From an uncultured Thermodesulfobacteriota bacterium (GTDB lineage Bacteria > Desulfobacterota > WTBG01 > CAIYCZ01): a DNA stretch of 64,000 bases. The notes below the pieces were generated by a model, which was not told the DNA's origin, did no database searches, and was given only the letters and a program-made list of their open reading frames with translations. The stretch spans positions 38,171 through 102,170 of the forward strand of contig CAZQKW010000004.1 in the NCBI GenBank assembly GCA_964594075.1, read 5' to 3'. The position numbers and the translations under genes are program-made. This document shows positions 34,505 to 55,156 of this stretch, in pieces; the stretch's first letter is position 1; the number at the start of each line of letters is the position of its first letter.

Positions 34505-35677
34505 TTATGTTGCCGCTTCCCTGCTGTTGAACCACCTGAACAGCTTACTCCGCGATTCTTTCTCAGTTTCCTTTTTTCCTATGATGTTTTCAGCAAGGTC
34601 TTTAAGGTTTTTGGCAATGGGCGAATTAGAGGCAACGCTTGACAGCGGAAGCCCTTGGTTAATAGCGTTCATGGTTGCCCGGTAGTCATTGGGTATCGTC
34701 CAGTAGATATCTTTCTTTATGCCTTCTGCTGCATCTTTCAAAGTAAGATCAGACTGTTTGATATACCGATTGATGATAACCCGAATCCGTTCCGGTTGTG
34801 GATAGCCTATCTCTTTTAAGGAGGAGAGAAGTTTTGAGGTGTTTGACAGGCACGGCAGGCTTAACACCGAAATAATAAAAATCAGATCAGACATTTCAAA
34901 TGCCTTTACCGTGGTGTCGTCTATGGAGGTGCCGGCGTCAATCACTATGAAGTCAAACATTCTCTTTAACAGCGAAAGAATGCGTTCCATTATCTTGGGC
35001 GTGGTTTTTTCCCCTTCCTTCCAATAACTTTCGGAAGGCAACACATAGACCCCGGTGTGATGTTTGGACAGGATGTCCATCAAAAAGGTGGGGTCAAGGC
35101 GGTTTATATGTTTGGTAATTTCGCTCAGGTTATATTTAGGCTTGATTTCCAGAAACAGCGGAATTTCGCCATATAGCCGGTTCATGTCCACCAGCACCAC
35201 CGAGTTTCTGCGTTTCTCCTCGGCAAGTTCCACTGCCAGATTTACCGCAAGCGTGGTGGTTCCCACGCCCCCTTTGCTGCCCAGCAAGGTCAGTATTCTG
35301 CCGAATTTGACCACATCCTTGGGTTTGGCATCTTCCGCCTTCTTTTTAAATGCATCAAATGCCTGTTTTATCTGGCTGGGGTCAATCGGCTGCGCCAGAA
35401 ATTCCTTTGCGCCGATTTTTATGGCGCGCATGAGAATTTCCGGGGCAGGGTTCTTTGCTGTTAGGAATACATCCCCCACCAGGTTCACGTTTTTCAGGGA
35501 TTCTATAAGCTGAAAATCGTTCTCCACCTGGTCACCCAGTTCATAAATCAGCAGGTCCGCTCTTCGCGTGTCATCAGGTCTGAGAATGGCAACGCCCTGA
35601 AATGAGGTAATAACTGCCTCCAGCTCGTTTCTGACCGACGAATTCTTGATTTCAAATTTGACTAAAATATCATTCAT
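34505..35677 (-). CDS. cpaE: CpaE/TadZ: receiver-like N-domain + ParA/MinD-type ATPase
   Basis: Deviant Walker [17 protein letters not shown]. Confidence 0.85.
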
Positions 35678-35696
35678 GGTATCTCTGCTTAATGAA

Positions 35697-36950
35697 TTAA
35701 TTTACCAGAACGGGAATTTTTGCCAGAACGCCAAAGTTATCTCCTCCCGTATTTCCGGTCGGCTCATGCGGCGTGCAATCAGGCAAAAAGTAAATGGTCT
35801 TTTTTTCGCATTCTACCGGACAGCCGGGGGCCGCATTCTGAATGTGAAAATGCGAAAAAAAACTTGCCCAGCTTGCTGCAGCATCCTCGGGGTTTGGCGA
35901 TGTCCATGCGCCATAGTTACCGACTCCGGCCATAGTTACGGGATAATTGGGATCCCTGGGATTATTATTGGGCCGTGTGCAATCATTCTTATTATCTCGG
36001 TGCACCCACAGAACGTTAACTTCAACGACACCAATAATCGGTGCACAATGATCAACGGGGCCTGGATAAGCGTCGCAGCGGATAACGGGCAATTTAATTG
36101 GCCATGGTCTAGTGCCAAACTCGCTATGCTGCAGCCAGCATTCGCGAAAATCTTGGAAAACGTTATCCGTCATGCCATTGATACCACCCATATCCTTACC
36201 CAAAAATAGTGTTTGGGGGTTCCCGTCTCCGCAAACAAGTGGCCTAACAGTTGGTGGGGTCGCCGTTTCGCACGGCTGGGTAAAATTGGTCCACGCGCCG
36301 GTATTGCTGTCGCATGCATTATTGTTACTGTTTATCATTCTGCCCATATTACAGGTATATTTATCATCCTGCGTAATTGCCTCTTTGCAAAGCGAAATGG
36401 GCTGATCCACCCCAAACGGTTCTATGGTGCCGGCAAAACCAATATAGGCGATTGCCTTTGCCTGCATCTGCTGGCTTTCCTTGCCAAATATTCTGGCAAA
36501 ATATAACGTTGCCGGTATACTCGCCCTCTGGGTGTAAACCCTTACCGCGTTAATAAATGCTGGGTTTGCGTCAAGCTCAGCAAAACTGACATCCCACAGT
36601 GCCGTCTGCTCGAGCGCATTGTTTGGCGTGAATGTTTTTGTTGCAAAGCTCCAGTGGCCCCGCTCAACTGATGCTACTTCAACATCTTCTTTTTCACTTT
36701 TGTTATCTATTGCCGCATTCCGCGCTATTTCATTTGCACCGGGGTTTATGCTTCCGTCCTCATTAAAAAGTTTTAAAGCGCCTGCCAATGCCCCCGCATC
36801 AGCTGCGTTCTGCAACTCATTACGCACCACATAAAGATGACCTATATCCACCGCAAGAGCGGTAAACCCGACAAAAATCACCAGGCACAATGCAACCAAT
36901 GCAGCAACCGCTCCCCTCTCATCAGTTACGATGTGCTTAAATTGTTTCAT
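35697..36950 (-). CDS. TadG-like pseudopilin/pilus assembly protein
   Basis: N-terminus RGAVAALVALCLVIFVGFTALAVDIGHLYVVRNELQNAADAGALAG is typical of TadG. Confidence 0.7.
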   Translation of the reverse strand: MKQFKHIVTDERGAVAALVALCLVIFVGFTALAVDIGHLYVVRNELQNAADAGALAGALKLFNEDGSINPGANEIARNAAIDNKSEKEDVEVASVERGHWSFATKTFTPNNALEQTALWDVSFAELDANPAFINAVRVYTQRASIPATLYFARIFGKESQQMQAKAIAYIGFAGTIEPFGVDQPISLCKEAITQDDKYTCNMGRMINSNNNACDSNTGAWTNFTQPCETATPPTVRPLVCGDGNPQTLFLGKDMGGINGMTDNVFQDFRECWLQHSEFGTRPWPIKLPVIRCDAYPGPVDHCAPIIGVVEVNVLWVHRDNKNDCTRPNNNPRDPNYPVTMAGVGNYGAWTSPNPEDAAASWASFFSHFHIQNAAPGCPVECEKKTIYFLPDCTPHEPTGNTGGDNFGVLAKIPVLVN

Positions 36951-36986
36951 TTACATCACCTCGTTTCTAAACTTGAACGGTTTTTA

Positions 36987-37529
36987 TTATTCTTCCGGCT
37001 GACATTCTGTTCTCATTTGTGTTACCGCAGAAAGTGTTATGGGCCCTGACAAAGAACCGCCAAAGAATGCTCCCAGAATATTTGGCAGCAGAAGAAAATT
37101 ATAATCAAATGTCACGGTCACTCTTCTATAATACTGACCATCTGCAGTTGGCACCATACCCGTAGTGGTAACCGACGGAGTTTTGGAGCCGGAAAAGTTA
37201 ATTAAATAATTTGCGCAGTAGCTGCGCACTACTGTTTCGACATCCGATGGGGAAATCATACGACAAGTACCCACTCCCGCTACACCATTAGGGGGATGGG
37301 TATATAGTATCGCTGTTCTGGCGCCTTCACGGCTGGCATTGGTAATGACCGCTTTGTTATAAAACAGTATCCCAAACTCAATAATGCCGAAAATAAAAAG
37401 CAACAACAGCGGCAGCACAATCGCAAACTCAACCGCTGATGCGCCCTTCTGGCATTTTAAACCTGTCTTATCTTTCACGTCATACCTCACGTATTCAAAA
37501 TTATTGTTATTGCTGGCCATAGATGCCAA
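36987..37529 (-). CDS. TadE/TadF-like pseudopilin
   Basis: QKGASAVEFAIVLPLLLLFIFGIIEFG TadE motif. Confidence 0.75.
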   Translation of the reverse strand: MASMASNNNNFEYVRYDVKDKTGLKCQKGASAVEFAIVLPLLLLFIFGIIEFGILFYNKAVITNASREGARTAILYTHPPNGVAGVGTCRMISPSDVETVVRSYCANYLINFSGSKTPSVTTTGMVPTADGQYYRRVTVTFDYNFLLLPNILGAFFGGSLSGPITLSAVTQMRTECQPEE

Positions 37530-37806
37530 ATCCCAATGTCCCCATGCGTTGAGCGCCGCTCGTCTGGCCTGCTTTTCCCGTAAAGCTTTTCACATATTGC
37601 CCCAACGCCGCTTCTGCAGCCTGACCGTGAAGCCCTTTGACCGGCTCAAGATTTTTGGAAGCATCGGGGTTGAATGTCTGCCCCTGTTTTTGTGCATAGT
37701 ATGCAGTGCCCCAGTTATCCGCCACCTTTGACGGGGTTGCACACGCGCCGCACACCAATGCTGCTATGGTTAACAAAATCACCGACAAAACAATGCGTGA
37801 TGTATT
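37507..37806 (-). CDS. small exported protein in tad locus
   Basis: Signal peptide MNTSRIVLSVILLTIAALVCGACA. No recognisable family. Confidence 0.4.
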   Translation of the reverse strand, partial: NTSRIVLSVILLTIAALVCGACATPSKVADNWGTAYYAQKQGQTFNPDASKNLEPVKGLHGQAAEAALGQYVKSFTGKAGQTSGAQRMGTLGFGIYGQQ

Positions 37807-37890
37807 CATGGCTGCCACTCCTTATATTTTTATTATTATATTTATTATTGAGGTAATTGCAAAAGTATTCAAAAATGGGATTACAGAGTT

Positions 37891-37956
37891 TCGCTCGCAA
37901 TGACAAATGGCGTCTGTGCGGTCATTGCGAGGAGAATAGCGACGAAGCAATCTCAA
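37891..37956. repeat. REP-like element, degenerate inverted pair (within tad locus intergenic)
   Basis: TCGCTCGCAATGAC ... GTCATTGCGAGGAGAATAGCGACGAAGCAATCTCAA. Confidence 0.45.
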
Positions 37957-38058
37957 TAAATGAAACTTTTGCAATTGGCTCTCATTGTATAAGTATTATC
38001 GTTTAATTCAAGCGTTTCTTTACCTGTCTCTCTTGCCGCTGTCTCGTGACTCATCCTT

Positions 38059-39486
38059 TTAGTTCATCGGCACAGCGTGCCCGAACTCACCGTCAAGCCT
38101 GCCTTTGGTATTTGAAGAAGGCGGGCAGGCTCTTCCTTCCAGCATCCCCAGCACATAGAATTCAAAATCATCCGGCTCCACAAAAAAATCTGTCGGCAAC
38201 GGCTGTTTGGCAGTGTCAAGTGGCTTTACCAGGCGCGGGGTAACAATAATTACCAACTCAGTTTCATTGCGTCTGAAATTTTGGCTGCGGAACAGTTGCC
38301 CGAGAATCGGTATGTCTCCCAACGCAGGGTATTTTGCAGCGTTTTCCCGCATATTTTCAGACAAAAGTCCGGCTATCGCAAAGCTCTGACCGTCGGCAAG
38401 TTCAACATTTGTTGAAGCGCTGCGGGTAGTTAGCCCTGGAACCACAAACCCCTGAATTGCCACTGCAGTTGAGTAATCCAGCTCAGACACCGACGGGGTT
38501 ACTTTAATATTTATTTTATTTTCGCTTAATACCGTCGGCGTGAACGCAAGCTCTACACCGTATTTCTTATATTCAATACCCACGGTTCCCAGTCCCTGTG
38601 GAATCGGCACCGGGTATTCGCCGCCGGCTAAAAACTGGGCATTTTGCCCGCTCAAAGCGATGAGCGTCGGCTCTGCCAGAACCTTTATCATTCCGTCGTC
38701 CCGCAAGGCATCAATGAGGGTAGTCCAAGAGGAACTGCCCCGGTTGAAACGGAATAACAGATTCGATGCAGGGGACGCAAAAAAACTGAGTAAACCGCTT
38801 CTCGCATCTGGCAGATTCCCTTCGCCTTCCTGAGCTAAGGTGCCGATCTGATTAAGCAATCCGATACCAAACTCTTCCTTATTGCGGTAGATGATATTGA
38901 AACCAAGTTCACGGGTGAGCCGTTTTGACATTTCCGCGACCCGCACCTCAAGCATAACCTCCTGCACACCCGAAACTTCCACCTGATTTCTGATCTTTCC
39001 TTTTGGGGCATACGCCTCGGCAACCGATAAAATCTGCGCAAGATTTGCCGCGCTGGAAACTCTGCCGGCAAGTATGATGGAATCATCGCCGGAGATGATC
39101 CGCAGCTCCTGTTCCTCGGGAAGTACCTGATTGAGCTTTTGTTTTAGCTTGGTGATGTCATAGCCCACGTGCAGGTCATAAATTTCGGTAATTTTGTTCC
39201 CTTCCCAGATGGTGAGATTACTGGTGCCGGGCGATTTGCCAGTGAGGTAAATCTCGCGCGGCGAAATCATCAAAAAGTCGGCGATTTTAGGTTCTGCAAT
39301 GGAAATACGGCTTATCGCCCGCGTGCTGCGAATGGTTACCGAACTGCCCACTGCCACTTCCAGCGTTTTATGCTGACGCGTGTCAACGGTGATTGCAGCG
39401 TCTAACAGCGCGGGCATACACAAGGCAAGTATAATCAAAACACAAAGCGTCCATTTCTTTATGGCAGATACAGGTATTGTGCTCAT
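38059..39486 (-). CDS. cpaC: Tad secretin CpaC/RcpA (BON + secretin domains)
   Basis: Signal peptide and C-terminal secretin signature GQSFAIAGLL...PILGQLFRS...ELVIIVTPRLV. Confidence 0.9.
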   Translation of the reverse strand: MSTIPVSAIKKWTLCVLIILALCMPALLDAAITVDTRQHKTLEVAVGSSVTIRSTRAISRISIAEPKIADFLMISPREIYLTGKSPGTSNLTIWEGNKITEIYDLHVGYDITKLKQKLNQVLPEEQELRIISGDDSIILAGRVSSAANLAQILSVAEAYAPKGKIRNQVEVSGVQEVMLEVRVAEMSKRLTRELGFNIIYRNKEEFGIGLLNQIGTLAQEGEGNLPDARSGLLSFFASPASNLLFRFNRGSSSWTTLIDALRDDGMIKVLAEPTLIALSGQNAQFLAGGEYPVPIPQGLGTVGIEYKKYGVELAFTPTVLSENKINIKVTPSVSELDYSTAVAIQGFVVPGLTTRSASTNVELADGQSFAIAGLLSENMRENAAKYPALGDIPILGQLFRSQNFRRNETELVIIVTPRLVKPLDTAKQPLPTDFFVEPDDFEFYVLGMLEGRACPPSSNTKGRLDGEFGHAVPMN

Positions 39487-39503
39487 GCAAACCCCTCCTT
39501 ATT

Positions 39504-40346
39504 TTAGAATCCCTGAGTGGTTACTTTGGTGCCTCTTATTTCTTTGACGGTTATTGGCTCGCGGCGGCTGAGTACCTGAGCCTGTTTTTCCTGACCTTTT
39601 ATTTTTACGGTTTTACCGGTATATGATTCAAGAGTTTCCGGAACCGTAGCTCCGTCGGTCAAGACAATCTCCGTATCCATGGCATTGCGCAACGCCAACT
39701 GCAGTTTGCCCTCGGTGGCGGCAAGGGCAAGTTTCTCGCCTTCTTCCGGGGTTACCTCAAGGGTAAAGACATCCACCGGTGAGGGCTCGCCTTTTTCATT
39801 CTTTTGAATTTCAGCACCGGTTGCCAGCACCAGGATATTTTCAAGAATTACTTTGGTAACCTGCTTCTTGTCGCGCGGATCTTCTATGCTGACCAGCACA
39901 TCAACGATATTTCCGGGCCTGATGAGACCAGCAAGCCCGATAACTTTATCACCCTTGACCGCGATTGCCCGTTTGCCGGTTTTTACCACCGCCGCCATGC
40001 CGCCGGCAGTAACGGTGGCAGGGGCAAGCTTGGTCTCCAGCACCGGTTCGTTGGCTTTTAACGGCTGAATGGTAACTCTGCCTTCAAGTTGATTGAGGTC
40101 GCTGAAATAACCGGGAGGAAGCGTTTCCTTGAGGTAGGGCACAAGGCGCAACTGCTCTTTAGTTATCTTGGTGCCCCAGGGCAAATCAATTGCTGCCGAA
40201 GCGATCATGACCGTTTCTTTCTCCGGGGCAACCTTGGGAGGCCCGATTTGCCGTTTTACCCAGTTGTAGGTAAAAACGCCTCCGATGAAGGCTATAAACA
40301 CAGCGAGAATGATTGGTAAAATTGCTTTCCAGATTCCCATAATCAA
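39504..40346 (-). CDS. cpaB: Flp pilus assembly protein CpaB/RcpC (SAF domain)
   Basis: N-terminal TM helix, SAF-like domain, 280 aa. Confidence 0.85.
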   Translation of the reverse strand: MIMGIWKAILPIILAVFIAFIGGVFTYNWVKRQIGPPKVAPEKETVMIASAAIDLPWGTKITKEQLRLVPYLKETLPPGYFSDLNQLEGRVTIQPLKANEPVLETKLAPATVTAGGMAAVVKTGKRAIAVKGDKVIGLAGLIRPGNIVDVLVSIEDPRDKKQVTKVILENILVLATGAEIQKNEKGEPSPVDVFTLEVTPEEGEKLALAATEGKLQLALRNAMDTEIVLTDGATVPETLESYTGKTVKIKGQEKQAQVLSRREPITVKEIRGTKVTTQGF

Positions 40347-40448
40347 CCCCCTTTGCTAAAGTTGATAATGTTACAAAACGCAACTCTACAAAACGCAACC
40401 CTAATTTATGTTATGTTAAAAACATATCTGTTAAACGCTTCGCCCCCT

Positions 40449-49514: not shown

Positions 49515-51056
49515 ATGAAGGCTTTTGCTCACTTCACCATCAGACAAAAACTTGCCGCCGGCTATGCGGTGATGTTTCTGTCGGTGCTTACCATAAGTGT
49601 TTATGCGGTCATTCAGCTCAACCGTTTTGATCGTTTGATAAACACTGCCCTGAGCGTTGATTCGGAAATACTAAAGAATGCAGAGTATCTCATGAACTCG
49701 CTGCTCACGCAGGCGAGCAATAATCAAAAATACATGATAACCGGCGACGCTGCCTTCAAGCGGCTGTTTGGCGAAAATGCTGAAGAATTCCTGAAGCGGC
49801 TGGATGCACTGGAGGGGCGGGCGCAGACTGATCAGCAAAGAGAGGCGATCGCTGCCATACGGACATCATACCAGCGGTATGCCGCGCTGGTAAACAAGGA
49901 GTTCCAGACCGAGGGCTTTCTCAACAGAACACCCGACAGCACCAAGCAGGAATTAATTGCCGAGATCAGCACTGCCATTGGGAAGCTGAATGAAATCACC
50001 CAGCGCGTGCTTGACCGCAAAATGCTCTACTCGCAGCAGGTGACCAAGACCGGCACCAGAATCGCCCTGCTGTTCACTATTATTGCGGTTGCCGCCGGCA
50101 TCGGGTTCGGCATCATTATCATTCAGTCGCTGTATAATCCGCTGCGCAGATTAAAAGAAGGCACACAGGACATATCTCGCGGAAATTTCAATGCCAGGAT
50201 TCCGATTGAAAGCCGCGATGAACTGGGAGAACTGTCTGCGGCATTTAATCAGATGTGCGACCGTCTGCGCGAGCTTGATCAATTGAAGTCGGATTTCATT
50301 GCCAATATTACCCATGATCTGAAAACCCCGCTTGCCTCAATCACCGAGGCTACCCAACTGCTGCGTGAGGGCGTGGGGGGCGCAGTTTCTCCTGAGCAGC
50401 AGCACCTGCTGCAGATCATACAGGAAGATGCTGCTCGGCTGATACGGCTGATTGAAGGCATGATAGATTTAACCAAAATGGAATCAGGGCTGGTGCAGTA
50501 TAATTTCATACGTGCCGACATAGCGCCGGTTATTGCTGAGGCAGTTGAAGCCATGCAGCTTCTTGCGGAAAGCAAACGCATTACACTTACTGCAACGGTT
50601 GCGCCGGGCGTACCAAAGTTGCTGATTGACCGGGAGAAGCTGGGCCAAGCCTTGATTAACCTGTTGAGTAATGCTATAAAATTCACGCCCGCGGGAGGCA
50701 CAGTCTGCATAAAAGCACAGAGAGTGAACGGTGAAGAAAAATCAGTGAACAGTGAGCAGTATGCAGTGAATAGTAACGGTGCTGATGCTCAGGACGAGGA
50801 TTTTGTGGAAATTTCTGTGGCGGATACCGGCATGGGCATCGCGGCCGAGGATTTGCCGAAAATTTTTGACAAATTTTTTCAGGGACGCGGCGGCACACAG
50901 CAGAAAGGCTCCGGCTTGGGACTGGCAATCGCCCAGCATATCATTCAGGCGCATGGGGGCAGCATCCGCGCCGCAAGTGAACACGCCCAGGGCGCCACAT
51001 TCTATATTTTACTGCCGGTTCCCAAACCGCCGGCAGACATGAGCGCCGCTGCCTGA
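49515..51056 (+). CDS. sensor histidine kinase (TM, HAMP, HisKA, HATPase_c)
   Basis: H-box FIANITHDLKTPL and G-box GSGLGLAIAQHII. Confidence 0.85.
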   Translation: MKAFAHFTIRQKLAAGYAVMFLSVLTISVYAVIQLNRFDRLINTALSVDSEILKNAEYLMNSLLTQASNNQKYMITGDAAFKRLFGENAEEFLKRLDALEGRAQTDQQREAIAAIRTSYQRYAALVNKEFQTEGFLNRTPDSTKQELIAEISTAIGKLNEITQRVLDRKMLYSQQVTKTGTRIALLFTIIAVAAGIGFGIIIIQSLYNPLRRLKEGTQDISRGNFNARIPIESRDELGELSAAFNQMCDRLRELDQLKSDFIANITHDLKTPLASITEATQLLREGVGGAVSPEQQHLLQIIQEDAARLIRLIEGMIDLTKMESGLVQYNFIRADIAPVIAEAVEAMQLLAESKRITLTATVAPGVPKLLIDREKLGQALINLLSNAIKFTPAGGTVCIKAQRVNGEEKSVNSEQYAVNSNGADAQDEDFVEISVADTGMGIAAEDLPKIFDKFFQGRGGTQQKGSGLGLAIAQHIIQAHGGSIRAASEHAQGATFYILLPVPKPPADMSAAA

Positions 51057-51086: not shown

Positions 51087-51668
51087 ATGACCAGATTCAC
51101 CGGGCGATGCGTTTACCGTCTGTGCCGGGTGGTTATACCCGGGCTTTTTATCTGCCTCATGAGCGGCTGCAGTTCTGTTGCCTATCTTGCTGCGCCCCGC
51201 GATCAGCAGCTTTCCGCAGATATTGAGCACACCTACCGTCAGGGAGCGTATCAGCAGTCCCTTGCGCACTGTGAAGCGCTCATCCACGATTTTCCGGGCA
51301 GCCCCTTTTATGCCCAGGCGCTGCTGTATGCAGGCCTTAACAGCCTGCAACTGCATTACCTTGACGACGACTACCGCAGCGCGCTGCGCTATTTTGAACA
51401 GGTTAAAGAGAAGGTTCCCGACAGCCCGCAGGCTGACCAGGCACAAGCGTGGATTGCAGTGCTGTCGCGCGCGCTTCAGGTTAAGCAGGACCTGCTGAAC
51501 GCAGAGGCGTTGAATGCCCGCTTCCGGCAGTCGCTCGATGAGAAAGACCGGCGCCTGGTGAAACTGAAAACCGAAAGCGAAAAGCTTAAAAAAGAAATCG
51601 AGCTGCTGAAAAAAGTTGACCTGCAAATGCACCAGCAAAAAAGGGACATGAGCAATGCCGGAAGATAG
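51087..51668 (+). CDS. TPR-like lipoprotein between the kinase and the regulator
   Basis: Lipobox LMSGC, TPR-like helices and a C-terminal coiled coil. The stop overlaps the response regulator start by 14 nt. Confidence 0.55.
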   Translation: MTRFTGRCVYRLCRVVIPGLFICLMSGCSSVAYLAAPRDQQLSADIEHTYRQGAYQQSLAHCEALIHDFPGSPFYAQALLYAGLNSLQLHYLDDDYRSALRYFEQVKEKVPDSPQADQAQAWIAVLSRALQVKQDLLNAEALNARFRQSLDEKDRRLVKLKTESEKLKKEIELLKKVDLQMHQQKRDMSNAGR

Positions 51669-53046
51669 TAACGACAATCGGGCAAAAATTCTGGTGGTGG
51701 ATGATGAGCCCAATATCCGGGACCTGATAAAAATACGGCTGACGTCCCTGGGCTATGATGTCATTGAGGCAGCGACCGGTGCGGAAGCCCGTGCCGCAGC
51801 CGCACAGGCGGTTCTGGATTTGGCAATCATAGATTTGAAGCTGGGAGAGACAGAAGACGGGCTGCAGGTCATGGAACAGCTTTTCCTGATAAATCCGCAG
51901 ATCCCGGTTATCATACTTACCGCGCACGGCAGCATTGAAAATGCTGTGGCGGCGATTAAAAAAGGGGCCTACAGCTACCTCACCAAGCCTTACAAGCCGG
52001 AGGAATTGACGCTGCAGGTAAAAAACGCCCTGGAAAAGCAGCGCCTGACCAAAGAAATCACCATTCTGAAAGGCATGCTGCAGGAGCGCTTTGCGGTAAA
52101 AAATATCATCGGCAAAAGCCCCCAGATGCAGGAAATTTTAAGCCAGGTGGAGCGCGCCGCCCAAACCGATGCAACCATCATGCTGTATGGGGAGAGCGGC
52201 ACCGGCAAAGAACTGATTGCCCAGATTATTCATCTTCAGAGCCGCCGCTCGCGCGGCCCGTTTGTTGCCATCAATTGCGGCGCAATTCCCGAAGGCCTGT
52301 TGGAAAATGAGCTGTTTGGGCATACCCGGGGAGCCTATACCGATGCCCGCGAAACCAAGATAGGCCTCTTCACGCAGGCTGACAAGGGCACCCTGCTGCT
52401 GGATGAAATCGGTGACACCAGCCCGGCGCTGCAGATAAAACTGCTCCGGGTGCTGCAGGAAAAGGAATTTAAACCATTGGGCGGGGAACGGCCGGTTAAG
52501 GTTGATGTGCGCATCATTGCCGCATCAAATAAAAATCTGCAGGAGGCGGTGGCGCGGGGAACATTCCGCGAAGATCTTTTCTACCGAATTCACGTTGTGC
52601 CGATCTACCTGCCCCCTCTGCGCGACCGTAAGGAGGACATCCCGCCGCTGGTAGAACATTTTATTAAACAATACAGCAAGGAACTGGGCAAAGAAGTCAA
52701 GGGACTGACCCCTGCCGCCATGCAGAAACTGATGCTTTATCACTGGCCGGGCAATATTCGCGAGCTTAAAAATGTGCTCGAACGGGCGGTCATTCTGACC
52801 AGCCACAACCTTATTGATGAACAAGATTTGCAGCATATGACACACCCTGCAGGCGGAACGGCTGACCGGGCGATATATCGGTCGTTTAAACAGGCAAAAG
52901 AGGAATTTGAGAAGGGTTATGTGATTCAGCTCTTAACCCAGACGCGGGGTAATGTGGTGCAGGCGGCGAAACTGGCGCAGCGCTATCGGGGAGATTTATA
53001 CCGGCTCATGAAAAAATACGGTTTGAAAGCAGAGGATTTTAAATAA
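51655..53046 (+). CDS. sigma-54-dependent response regulator (NtrC family: REC + AAA+ + Fis-type HTH)
   Basis: REC domain VVDDEP...D, Walker A GESGTGKE, GAFTGA-region ELFGHTRGAYTDA and a C-terminal HTH. Confidence 0.9.
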   Translation: MPEDSNDNRAKILVVDDEPNIRDLIKIRLTSLGYDVIEAATGAEARAAAAQAVLDLAIIDLKLGETEDGLQVMEQLFLINPQIPVIILTAHGSIENAVAAIKKGAYSYLTKPYKPEELTLQVKNALEKQRLTKEITILKGMLQERFAVKNIIGKSPQMQEILSQVERAAQTDATIMLYGESGTGKELIAQIIHLQSRRSRGPFVAINCGAIPEGLLENELFGHTRGAYTDARETKIGLFTQADKGTLLLDEIGDTSPALQIKLLRVLQEKEFKPLGGERPVKVDVRIIAASNKNLQEAVARGTFREDLFYRIHVVPIYLPPLRDRKEDIPPLVEHFIKQYSKELGKEVKGLTPAAMQKLMLYHWPGNIRELKNVLERAVILTSHNLIDEQDLQHMTHPAGGTADRAIYRSFKQAKEEFEKGYVIQLLTQTRGNVVQAAKLAQRYRGDLYRLMKKYGLKAEDFK

Positions 53047-53247
53047 GTGCGTCTCCGGGCCGGGGACCGATTGTATCGCCCCCGAGCCTTGACAAATGGT
53101 TTAACCGGACAATGGCGCTCTACCAAACGCCGCCATTGACCTGAATTGAGCTTTGGTCGTGCCGTGCGCCGCAATCAGTCATGACCCCGGGCGGAGTTTG
53201 ATGAGAAATAGCCGCCGTTTGCCGACGGCCGGCAACTGAGCGCGACA

Positions 53248-53619
53248 CTATTTTATGCGGACAATGCGAACCTTGAGCGTTGAGCAGCCCACCAGATCTA
53301 TAGAATATACCTTGTATAACGCATAGAGCGCAGCGGTACCGATCAGCCCCATCCCCACAAAGGTCTCAATGATGACCAACCCGACCGCAAGCGAGGTGAG
53401 GGCTGCGGCCAACAATGCCGGAACCTCCCCGAAAAAAAATGACAGGACGATGCCCAACACTGCAAGAACTGCAACCACCACTAAGCCGCGTTTGGTTATG
53501 ATTTTCATGCGCTTGAACTGCAACAGCCTGCGAGCCAGTTGTTCATCATCAATTAATATTTCATTCTCGTTGTGTTCAATGGCCTTTCTGAGCTCTTCCG
53601 TGGTTTTTACCGCGATCAT
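53248..53619 (-). CDS. small hypothetical membrane protein
   Basis: 123 aa with two TM helices. No family recognised. Confidence 0.45.
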   Translation of the reverse strand: MIAVKTTEELRKAIEHNENEILIDDEQLARRLLQFKRMKIITKRGLVVVAVLAVLGIVLSFFFGEVPALLAAALTSLAVGLVIIETFVGMGLIGTAALYALYKVYSIDLVGCSTLKVRIVRIK

Positions 53620-53738
53620 GAAAATCCTCTCCGCACCGGTTCAAAAATACGCTACCCTGATTTAGAAGAAAAATGTTTAACTATTTTCTCTGATAGTCCG
53701 ATACCTGATGTCGGCTGGCAGTTATCAAACCCCATTAC

Positions 53739-53773
53739 CCCCCTGAAGGCTTGGTCTTTCAGGGGGCTTTTTT
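53739..53773 (+). terminator. intrinsic terminator
   Basis: CCCCCTGAA-(loop)-TTCAGGGGG followed by CTTTTTT. Confidence 0.5.
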
Positions 53774-53788
53774 ATATGTGGTGATGAT

Positions 53789-53816
53789 TTGACAAATTAA
53801 AAAAATATGTTATAAA
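53789..53816 (+). promoter_or_regulatory. near-consensus sigma70 promoter (TTGACA-N16-TATAAA)
   Basis: TTGACAaattaaaaaaatatgtTATAAAat. Confidence 0.45.
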
Positions 53817-53822
53817 ATAGTT

Positions 53823-53896
53823 GAGGGTGTGAAACCCCTCATGTTCCCCTCTTTTTTTACCCCTGGAACGAGTAACATCGTCCAGGGGTTTTTTTA
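53823..53896 (+). ncRNA. candidate small RNA (~75 nt) bounded by promoter and terminator
   Basis: After the promoter: 5' hairpin GAGGGTGTGAAACCCCTC, a U-run, then a terminator hairpin CCCCTGGAACGAGTAACATCGTCCAGGGG followed by TTTTTTT. No ORF. Confidence 0.35.
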
Positions 53897-54002
53897 TGAC
53901 CCACAACCATGGGCACCGTGATATTCTCCACACCCGCAAAGGTTATACACCCGACCTCCCCTAACCTGTCCTCAGAGGGCCTGTGTCGTAATGGCATTAG
54001 AT

Positions 54003-54028
54003 GTCATTCTGCACAAGGTGAAGAATCT
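54003..54028. repeat. REP-like 26-bp element (reverse orientation)
   Basis: GTCATTCTGCACAAGGTGAAGAATCT. Confidence 0.55.
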
Positions 54029-54247
54029 TAATTGCGACTCAGCCTCCTATCAAGGAGGGGAAAAGTTATCACGTCGGCGCATGGTGCCCCGGGCAGACAG
54101 TGCACCATGCAACGGAACCTGCCGCTGCGCAGGTGCTGAGCGGTGGGGTTATGGCTCAGGAAAACCACCGTGCGCTGATAGTTCACGATGCTTTTTTAAT
54201 TAAAAACGCACGGGGAACATAGATGAAGTCGTCTTGCCGCAAAATTT

Positions 54248-54388
54248 TCAATTGTTTTTTTGCTCAGAGAGTCTGGAAAGGACCTCAATATTTTCACGCA
54301 TGCGCTTTTGTGTCGCTTTAAAGTTAGCCTTGTTTTTGCTCCGTTTTCGTTTGCGGATAGATTCAGTCTTTGCAGTATTTGATGCCAC
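54248..54388 (-). CDS. possible small basic protein (46 aa, GTG start)
   Basis: GGAGG Shine-Dalgarno 9 nt upstream of a GTG start. Translation VASNTAKTESIRKRKRSKNKANFKATQKRMRENIEVLSRLSEQKNN is Lys/Arg-rich and ribosomal-protein-like. Not validated. Confidence 0.2.
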   Translation of the reverse strand: MASNTAKTESIRKRKRSKNKANFKATQKRMRENIEVLSRLSEQKNN

Positions 54389-54470
54389 TACCTATTTCCT
54401 CCTTTTTCCCTTCAGTATTCTCAATAATTAATCAAGATGCAGAAAAAATTGTTATTTCAAAAGTAATGTT

Positions 54471-54497
54471 GCGATTCTTCGCTGCGTTCAGAATGAC
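54471..54497. repeat. REP-like 26-bp element
   Basis: GCGATTCTTCGCTGCGTTCAGAATGAC. Confidence 0.6.
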
Positions 54498-54952
54498 GCA
54501 TTTTTTTACCGCAGACGGTCAATATTTCCATTGTATCTGTTGATAAATTTTAGCAGCTTACCGCTCTTATGTCACGATAAATTTTAGCTCTGCAGCATGA
54601 GACTGCGCGGTAGCAGGGCAGACTCGGCAGCGGCGTTTTTTACCGTCATTGCGATCAAAAACCCGAAATGTTTTTCAGTAAAAAATTTATTTACATTTAT
54701 TATATAAAAGGCTATGGTTACCAGCAACAGGGTATGGTGCTGCATTCTCAGGTTTTAAACGTCGCCTGAGTTGCAGCAAAAATCTGGTGAAAAACAGTCT
54801 GTGTTTAGTATTTTTTCACTACGCGAGTTGGGTTCGGTATTTTGGAGCCCATGCCATTTCGGCCTTGCGCCTGAGCTGTGCAGCTCCACGGCAGCTCTCA
54901 AAGTAATGTCCCGACGAGCGGTATTTTATGAGGAAAGGAGGGATTTGAGAGT

Positions 54953-55156
54953 ATGGCAAAAGGCCGGGTGAAATGGTTTGACAAAAAAAAGGGCTACGGC
55001 TTTATTGAGGCCGACGGCCAGGGCGATGTATTTGTCCACTACAGCAACATTGAAGGCGACGGGTTCCGTTTGCTGAAAGACGGAGAGCAGGTGAGTTTCG
55101 AAGTGGAGAACAGCCCGAAAGGACCGCACGCAATAAAGGTCAAAAAAGTGGAATAG
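54953..55156 (+). CDS. cold-shock protein (CspA family), second copy
   Basis: KWFDKKKGYGFI and VFVHYS motifs; 67 aa. Confidence 0.9.
   Translation: MAKGRVKWFDKKKGYGFIEADGQGDVFVHYSNIEGDGFRLLKDGEQVSFEVENSPKGPHAIKVKKVE

Follow-up and report, generated by a model that had tools for sequence, protein, structure and literature searches.

What is made from positions 53789 to 53895 of the window, by which we mean the whole 64,000-nucleotide (64-kb) stretch of DNA analysed here? The preliminary description of this DNA proposed that an independently transcribed, non-coding small RNA (sRNA) is encoded there, and the comparative sequence evidence gathered since supports that proposal. The interval, hereafter unit B, very probably is a real, conserved, and previously uncatalogued gene for a regulatory sRNA of ~73 nt in an uncultured lineage of sulfate-reducer-type Thermodesulfobacteriota. 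It is surrounded by the following genes:

49515-51056, + strand: histidine kinase gene
51087-51668, + strand: TPR lipoprotein-like open reading frame
51655-53046, + strand: sigma54-type (NtrC-type) response regulator gene
53248-53619, - strand: p123, a gene for a 123-aa membrane protein
53677-53773, + strand: unit A, a small promoter-terminator unit
53789-53895, + strand: unit B, the proposed sRNA gene from promoter to terminator
54248-54388, - strand: p46, a basic open reading frame of 46 aa
54953-55156, + strand: csp, with a MarR gene next

Unit B had been placed in a 1.3-kb gene-poor region between the sigma54 regulator and csp. Its position between these two genes stands, but the region can no longer be called gene-poor, since p123, p46, and unit A lie inside it. 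Gene order also bears on whether the interval could simply be the 3' UTR of a longer mRNA, a concern that had been raised at the outset. The nearest upstream gene on the + strand ends 740 nt from unit B, beyond the convergent gene p123, and on the downstream side the next gene has the - orientation in every clade. With opposite-strand genes on both sides, unit B can be neither a 3' UTR nor a + strand leader, and the concern falls away. The DNA itself matches a 124-kb contig of JGI metagenome 3300037501 at 100% over the region compared, and a Logan assembly also matches it. The nearest GTDB genomes are MAGs labelled uncultured delta proteobacterium or Thermodesulfobacteriota.

Several other features were seen on the downstream side. 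The p46 protein (MASNTAKTESIRKRKRSKNKANFKATQKRMRENIEVLSRLSEQKNN) is very basic, and its gene has a GGAGG Shine-Dalgarno (SD) sequence and a promoter reading GTGACA-N17-TAAAAT (54575-54547). A homologue with 47-49% identity was found by tblastn in locus L003, and p46-like reverse-strand sequence is located at the same position in L084, L085, L087, L088, and L090. No Pfam match was found for the p46 protein, which is likely the product of a real small protein gene inside this supposedly gene-poor region. Inverted repeats of 25 nt, 80% complementary, at 54003-54027 and 54473-54497 flank p46 at a distance of 445 nt from each other, and could reflect chance or could mark the two termini of a small element, mobile or inverted. 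The right arm of this repeat is overlapped by a terminator-like hairpin, TGCGTTCAGAATGACGCA followed by T7, at 54483-54506 (+ strand), just upstream of the p46 promoter region.

Within unit B, the following elements can be assigned:

53789-53794, + strand: -35 hexamer TTGACA of the sRNA promoter, from a consensus scan
53803-53816, + strand: invariant AAATATGYTA block (-16 TRTG, or extended -10 TGn) and -10 hexamer TATAAA, from the alignment
about 53822-53824, + strand: predicted 5' end (TSS), placed by its spacing from the -10 hexamer
53822-53841, + strand: 5' hairpin of 6 bp, consisting of UGAGGG (53822-27), an 8-nt loop UGUGAAAC, and CCCUCA (53836-41)
53841-53858, + strand: C/U-rich stretch AUGUUCCCCUCUUUUUUU, the proposed seed, unpaired in the consensus structure
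53852-53858, + strand: U-run
53859-53889, + strand: intrinsic terminator, stem ACCCCUGGA(A)CGA / UCGUCCAGGGGU, 9+3 bp with one bulged A
53889-53895, + strand: T7 tail of the terminator

The TTGACA-N16-TATAAA promoter that had been read at 53789..53816 is indeed there, as are the 5' hairpin, the U-run, and the strong terminator with its T7 tail. What the first reading missed is the extended -10 element. TATG at 53806-53809 provides a TGn directly before the -10 hexamer (53811-53816), and the -35/-10 spacer is 16 nt long. In the consensus scan this promoter matches at 11 of 12 positions. Six positions scoring at least 11/12 are present on both strands of the 64-kb window (128 kb), compared to 1.2 +/- 1.0 in shuffled sequence, and only two of the six carry the TG extension. 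The 76-nt transcript folds with -30.3 kcal/mol, whereas dinucleotide shuffles average -17.2 +/- 2.8 (z = -4.7), and none of 200 is as good. Two CCCUC blocks are available as partners for the 5' GAGGG, which makes alternative folds possible. On the - strand side, no T-run follows the stem, and therefore the terminator acts on + strand transcription only.

Conservation and covariation in related genomes had been suggested as ways to check the candidate, along with a scan of Rfam. Orthologous loci were sought using the p123 protein as the anchor, with homologues graded from 58 to 100% identity, and were drawn from JGI metagenomes via p123 alignment, from exact-protein look-ups, and from one GTDB genome (L003). 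Unit B was recovered as eight distinct sequences at the same syntenic site and in the same orientation, in loci whose p123 identity spans 64-100%. These are the window and L082 (in which the p123 fragment is identical), L069 and L070 (p123 93%), L071-74, L085, and L088 (82-85%), L077 (67%), and L081 (64%). The functional segments of the gene are conserved among these sequences, in agreement with the original proposal. Mean pairwise identities in an alignment of the whole intergenic region are 0.86 for the -16/-10 block, 0.88 and 0.93 for the 5' stem arms, 0.88 for the unpaired C-rich stretch, 0.86 and 0.82 for the terminator arms, and 0.91 for the T tail. The corresponding values are 0.45 for the promoter spacer, 0.47 from the -10 to the start, 0.38 for the hairpin loop (which also varies in length), 0.44 for the spacer between units A and B, and 0.37 for the downstream flank. 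To the extent that an alignment can show it, this mosaic is the pattern expected for an sRNA gene.

The same sequences yield a consensus structure (RNAalifold) composed of the 5' hairpin, a single strand, and the terminator. All six pairs of the 5' hairpin are kept in 8/8 sequences, with the GC pair 6-18 becoming GU in two of them, and 93.8% of cells in the consensus structure are paired, versus at most 62.5% when the partners are slid. The terminator is likewise kept in all eight (90.6% of cells paired), and compensatory changes occur at two of its stem pairs. Covariation thus gave a mixed outcome: these two compensated pairs count in favor of the structure, but 53-64 of 500 shuffles were as good, which is not significant for eight sequences whose 5' stem is almost invariant. 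With covariation this weak, the case for the structure depends on thermodynamics and on which segments are conserved. In every homologue the seed stays unpaired, with a mean unpaired probability of 0.52-0.97. A covariance model (R1) scores unit B at 70-94 bits, and at the syntenic site only, across 72 sources (the window plus 71 loci). No second copy or paralogue was encountered in a pattern search with 3 mismatches or in the covariance model search of the window and 71 loci, and viral contigs scanned for the seed gave 0 matches.

Not every lineage has retained unit B. It is absent from L003, L075, L076, L078, L079, L084, L087, and L090, while contigs L083, L086, L089, and L091 stop before or inside it, and the P0012 (75% clade) loci were left out. 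In L003 (7928-7988), L075, L076, and L078, the unit A terminator is fused (...CCAGGG-TTTTTTTATGACCGGGG) to what, in L077 and L081, is the sequence 3' of the unit B terminator. The loss in these four loci looks like a deletion via recombination between two similar terminators. Unit B must be dispensable in the loss lineages, since it is deleted there, and those lineages keep the p123 gene intact. In L083 (p123 72% clade; 1-60, - strand of the locus), the TTGACA-N16-TATAAA promoter is intact, and the transcribed 5' hairpin is TAGAC-AAGGG-GUCUA rather than UGAGGG...CCCUCA; the contig stops there. The TTGACA hexamer is kept in seven of the eight distinct orthologues. The exception, L081, has an insertion of ~80 nt (986 region) that splits the -35 element, and a new TTTACA is present at the correct spacing. 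This re-creation of the -35 after the insertion suggests that selection maintains the transcription of unit B.

Other insertions were noted upstream of p123. In L074 and L085, ~130 nt containing a CCGAATCC...GGGAATTCGG hairpin lie between the p123 RBS and unit A, and L079, L080, and L087 carry insertions of ~170 nt. When synteny was instead anchored on the regulator, 66 GTDB genomes were examined, among which the neighbourhood is kept only in L003; the others have paralogues or rearranged regions.

Unit A, the neighbor of unit B, has these parts:

53677-53704, + strand: unit A promoter, sigma28-like, TTAA-N16-TCCGATAC
53713-53720, + strand: conserved GGCUGGCA
53739-53773, + strand: unit A terminator

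Across loci, the unit A promoter reads TTAA-N15/16-(G/T)CCGATA(C/T), with the exact GCCGATAT in L077. Unit A also has a C-rich stretch, CCUUCCCCCC. Judged by eye, GGCUGGCA appears in a hairpin loop whose stem is clade-specific (AUAAC/GUUAU, GCG/CGC, UGUGG/CCACA), an arrangement that RNAalifold did not recover. Wherever a p123 locus extends far enough upstream, unit A is present, also in loci without unit B, and it probably represents a second, more widespread sRNA. The two units are not homologous, because unit A reaches no more than 11.6-20 bits with the unit B covariance model.

Unit B does not fall into a known RNA family. With the gathering thresholds of Rfam 15, a scan of the whole window detected only tmRNA (RF00023; 6994-7353, + strand, 215 bits, full length), and thus the check suggested earlier gave no family for the candidate. 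When the region 53000-55000 and four homologous loci (L069, L071, L077, L081) were searched at E<=10, only sub-threshold matches were obtained. NsiR1 (RF02399) reaches 25.2 bits in the window and 21-24 in the homologues, versus a gathering threshold of 39, with essentially only the terminator aligned. NsiR1 is likewise a short RNA (~60 nt) with a CCCC...GGGG terminator and a U tail, and NsiR1 genes are tandem promoter-terminator units, as are units A and B; but NsiR1 is cyanobacterial, and neither of units A and B is a copy of the other. The atoC RNA motif (RF01733) scores 17.2 bits (E = 9.1) versus a threshold of 50, and is absent in the four homologous loci. Both candidates were rejected, as products of chance or of a similar terminator. 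RsaE, RoxS, and LhrC gave no match at E<=10, whether in the window region or in the four homologous loci, and a literature search on sRNAs in Desulfobacterota returned nothing relevant.

The gene context offers another possible parallel. Qrr-type sRNAs are encoded beside an NtrC-family sigma54 activator, and unit B likewise is located near a histidine kinase and sigma54-dependent regulator pair. However, the unit B promoter is of the sigma70 type, and a convergent gene separates unit B from the regulator. Furthermore, no sigma54 promoter (-24 GG / -12 GC) with up to 2 mismatches was found in 53000-55000, and so a Qrr-like dependence on the neighboring regulator is not supported.

More useful hints regarding function come from the unpaired stretch. 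The seed AUGUUCCCCUCUUUUUUU contains UCCC and resembles an anti-SD sequence, and its reverse complement, AAAAAGAGGGGAACAU, reads like a ribosome binding site (RBS) and start codon. The same holds for AAAAAGAGGGGAACAUGAG, likewise a reverse complement of this conserved segment, and repression in trans through anti-SD pairing was adopted as the working explanation on this basis. Under this explanation, the RNA (53822-53895, + strand) would start from a strong promoter of the housekeeping type and stop at an intrinsic terminator. Its 5' hairpin might protect the 5' end, its middle module would be the conserved unpaired C/U-rich stretch (AUGUUCCCCUCUUUUU), and its 3' module would be the terminator hairpin with its U tail. 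The seed would pair in trans with G-rich RBSs, and possibly with the adjacent start codon via CUCAUG, thereby blocking translation initiation of target mRNAs in the manner of RsaE and LhrC. The CUCA portion of the start-codon pairing block lies inside the 5' stem, which would have to open. We give a little better than an even chance to this reading of unit B as a stand-alone, non-coding, trans-acting sRNA of ~73 nt with an anti-SD-like seed that blocks RBSs.

The best documented examples of the C-rich anti-SD strategy come from Firmicutes, and comparison with these better known RNAs is informative in both directions. Rsa RNAs such as RsaE have a 5' hairpin, an unpaired UCCC, and a terminator, and the motif binds SD regions and prevents formation of the initiation complex (Geissmann et al. 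2009, PMC2790875). RsaE and RoxS are, like unit B, short RNAs in which a C-rich motif (UCCC/UCCCC), conserved and unpaired, is combined with a 5' hairpin and an intrinsic terminator, but there is no homology of sequence or structure, and the function of unit B is a prediction from sequence. The hosts differ as well (low-GC Gram-positive bacteria versus an uncultured Thermodesulfobacteriota), and unit B, unlike RsaE and RoxS, has one single-stranded C-rich block that is followed by a U-run.

The LhrC RNA of Listeria carries UCCC motifs in a stem-loop, in a single-stranded linker, and in the terminator, which bind the G-rich RBS of an adhesin mRNA, and this pairing requires the opening of stem A (PMC4132741). 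Unit B similarly has C-rich blocks in the 3' arm of its hairpin (CCCCUC), in its linker (UUCCCCUC), and in the 5' arm of its terminator (ACCCCUGG). The adhesin RBS would be paralleled by a candidate pilus secretin RBS, and pairing with the AUG would again need the 5' stem to open. In contrast, LhrC is multicopy and under two-component control, whereas unit B is single-copy, and no regulator site can be recognised at its housekeeping promoter, which is close to consensus; LhrC and unit B are not homologous. By analogy, unit B would be an RNA that works like RsaE and LhrC but belongs to neither family.

A search for pairing partners covered the 64-kb window and pointed to one site above the others:

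39482-39505, - strand: RBS and start codon of cpaC, AAAAUAAGGAGGGGUUUGCAUGAG, a putative trans target

This site belongs to a Tad/Flp pilus locus at 35000-40400 (- strand), with cpaB/rcpC at 39504-40346 and the cpaC secretin gene at 38059-39486. The Secretin domain of cpaC and the RcpC domain of its neighbor were confirmed by Pfam, and genes for a prepilin peptidase, TadE, and Tad proteins are found in the orthologous loci L092-95. The cpaC RBS forms the best non-self seed duplex of 42,648 windows, at -24.4 kcal/mol, by pairing AAGGAGGGG and CAUGAG, and it ranks first among 147 RBS-like sites. When the seed was shuffled as a control, 3 of 200 versions reached -24.4 kcal/mol at any of the 147 sites. 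At the cpaB-cpaC junctions, both complementary blocks are kept while the spacer differs (UUUG, UUUUUC, UUA), and the complementarity is -20.1 kcal/mol in L092 and -26.4 kcal/mol in L093-95 (84% clade). L092 is on the same 208-kb contig as L070, and hence carries unit B. Several RBSs of the Tad locus are G-rich (AAAGGGGG, GAGAGGGG) and belong to the five best matches of the seed within the window.

Care must be taken in weighing these matches. An anti-SD-like seed finds some complementarity at many strong RBSs, and the persistence of the cpaC match is weak support because an RBS and start codon are conserved for translation anyway. Overall, the cpaC secretin mRNA is the best candidate target in the 64 kb, yet whether unit B acts on it is doubtful.

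Several other explanations for unit B deserve consideration. A peptide or a leader-peptide attenuator might be encoded, given that a conserved AUG (53841) is preceded, at a distance of 13 nt, by an SD-like GAGGG and that the first codons of the Phe-rich frame (MFPSFF...) are kept as MFPSF in six of eight sequences. Past codon 5, the predicted peptides diverge in both length and sequence, as exemplified by MFPSFFTPGTSN... (26 aa), MFPSFYPWND (10 aa), MFPFFSPGEDY... (open), and MSPLLCPGKM... (22 aa), owing to a 2-nt difference in T-run length and a 1-nt indel in L081. Frames on the - strand are broken in turn by loop-length differences that are not multiples of 3. These changes speak against coding readings on both strands, and the earlier statement that there is no ORF is borne out, as no reading frame is conserved across the homologues. 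The SD-like block is also sequestered in the stem, and the frame crosses the terminator. The attenuator version fails as well, given that the peptide is not conserved and that there is no co-oriented gene downstream to attenuate, the next gene being on the - strand in all clades. We consider an encoded peptide or attenuator extremely improbable.

An action in cis is unlikely too, although less so. Read-through on the - strand, from the p46 promoter or another to the right, might extend into p123, and units A and B might then control that gene. Their RNAs would be perfectly complementary to p123 intergenic or 5'-UTR RNA and would act either by forming duplexes with it or through transcriptional interference. 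In favor of this, p123 and p46 both lie on the - strand, there is no convincing sigma70 promoter between the p123 start and unit A, and in the 84% clade no obvious - strand terminator follows p46; that the two small units are closely linked to p123, and that this linkage is conserved, also fits a local function. In the window, however, a stem CCGTGCG...CGCACGG and then UGGUUUUCC are found just after p46 on the - strand, and the lineages that deleted unit B keep p123 intact. Moreover, complementarity in cis is independent of sequence, whereas a conserved single-stranded seed beside variable loops is the pattern of a seed that acts in trans. A smaller chance still is given to a real sRNA that does not pair with mRNAs, and instead binds a protein, serves as a decoy, or pairs with or sponges the unit A RNA. 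The keeping of two unrelated small units side by side and the alternative folds that GAGGG permits with either CCCUC block would suit such a role, but GGA loops repeated as protein-binding motifs, in the manner of CsrB/RsmZ, are absent, no extended complementarity between units A and B was found in the sequence, and the architecture fits that of base-pairing sRNAs. Equally improbable is a non-functional or purely structural promoter-terminator pair, such as a remnant or an insulator that separates divergent units. Its loss from several lineages would be readily explained, but a remnant would not keep a 10-nt -16/-10 block, a hairpin stem, and a 14-nt unpaired stretch, all of them invariant, while the bases around them fall to ~40% identity, and the new TTTACA that offsets the -35 insertion in L081 argues for selection on transcription.

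If unit B is indeed a trans-acting repressor of RBSs, a broader role can be imagined for the two small units. They might form a conserved, lineage-specific module that sets the motile or attached state, in which unit A would be driven by the flagellar sigma28, as its (G/T)CCGATA -10 hints, and unit B would use its anti-SD-like seed to silence cpaC and perhaps other G-rich Tad RBSs. This scheme is speculative and has only a slim chance of being correct.

New candidate sRNAs are common, and unit B is unsurprising in kind. To our knowledge, the RNA regulators of uncultured Thermodesulfobacteriota ("Deltaproteobacteria") from sediments and soils are almost unexplored, and Rfam is without a family for the unit B RNA. 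Three usable products come out of this analysis: a seed alignment of 8 sequences and its covariance model, a seed of defined sequence, and the cpaC RBS as a candidate target open to testing. The case also illustrates that a reading of sequence alone can pick out a real sRNA gene. An anti-SD, C-rich architecture in so distant a phylum would support the convergent use of this mechanism, and if the motile/attached module proves to be true, it would be the first description of an sRNA circuit from this group of uncultured Thermodesulfobacteriota.
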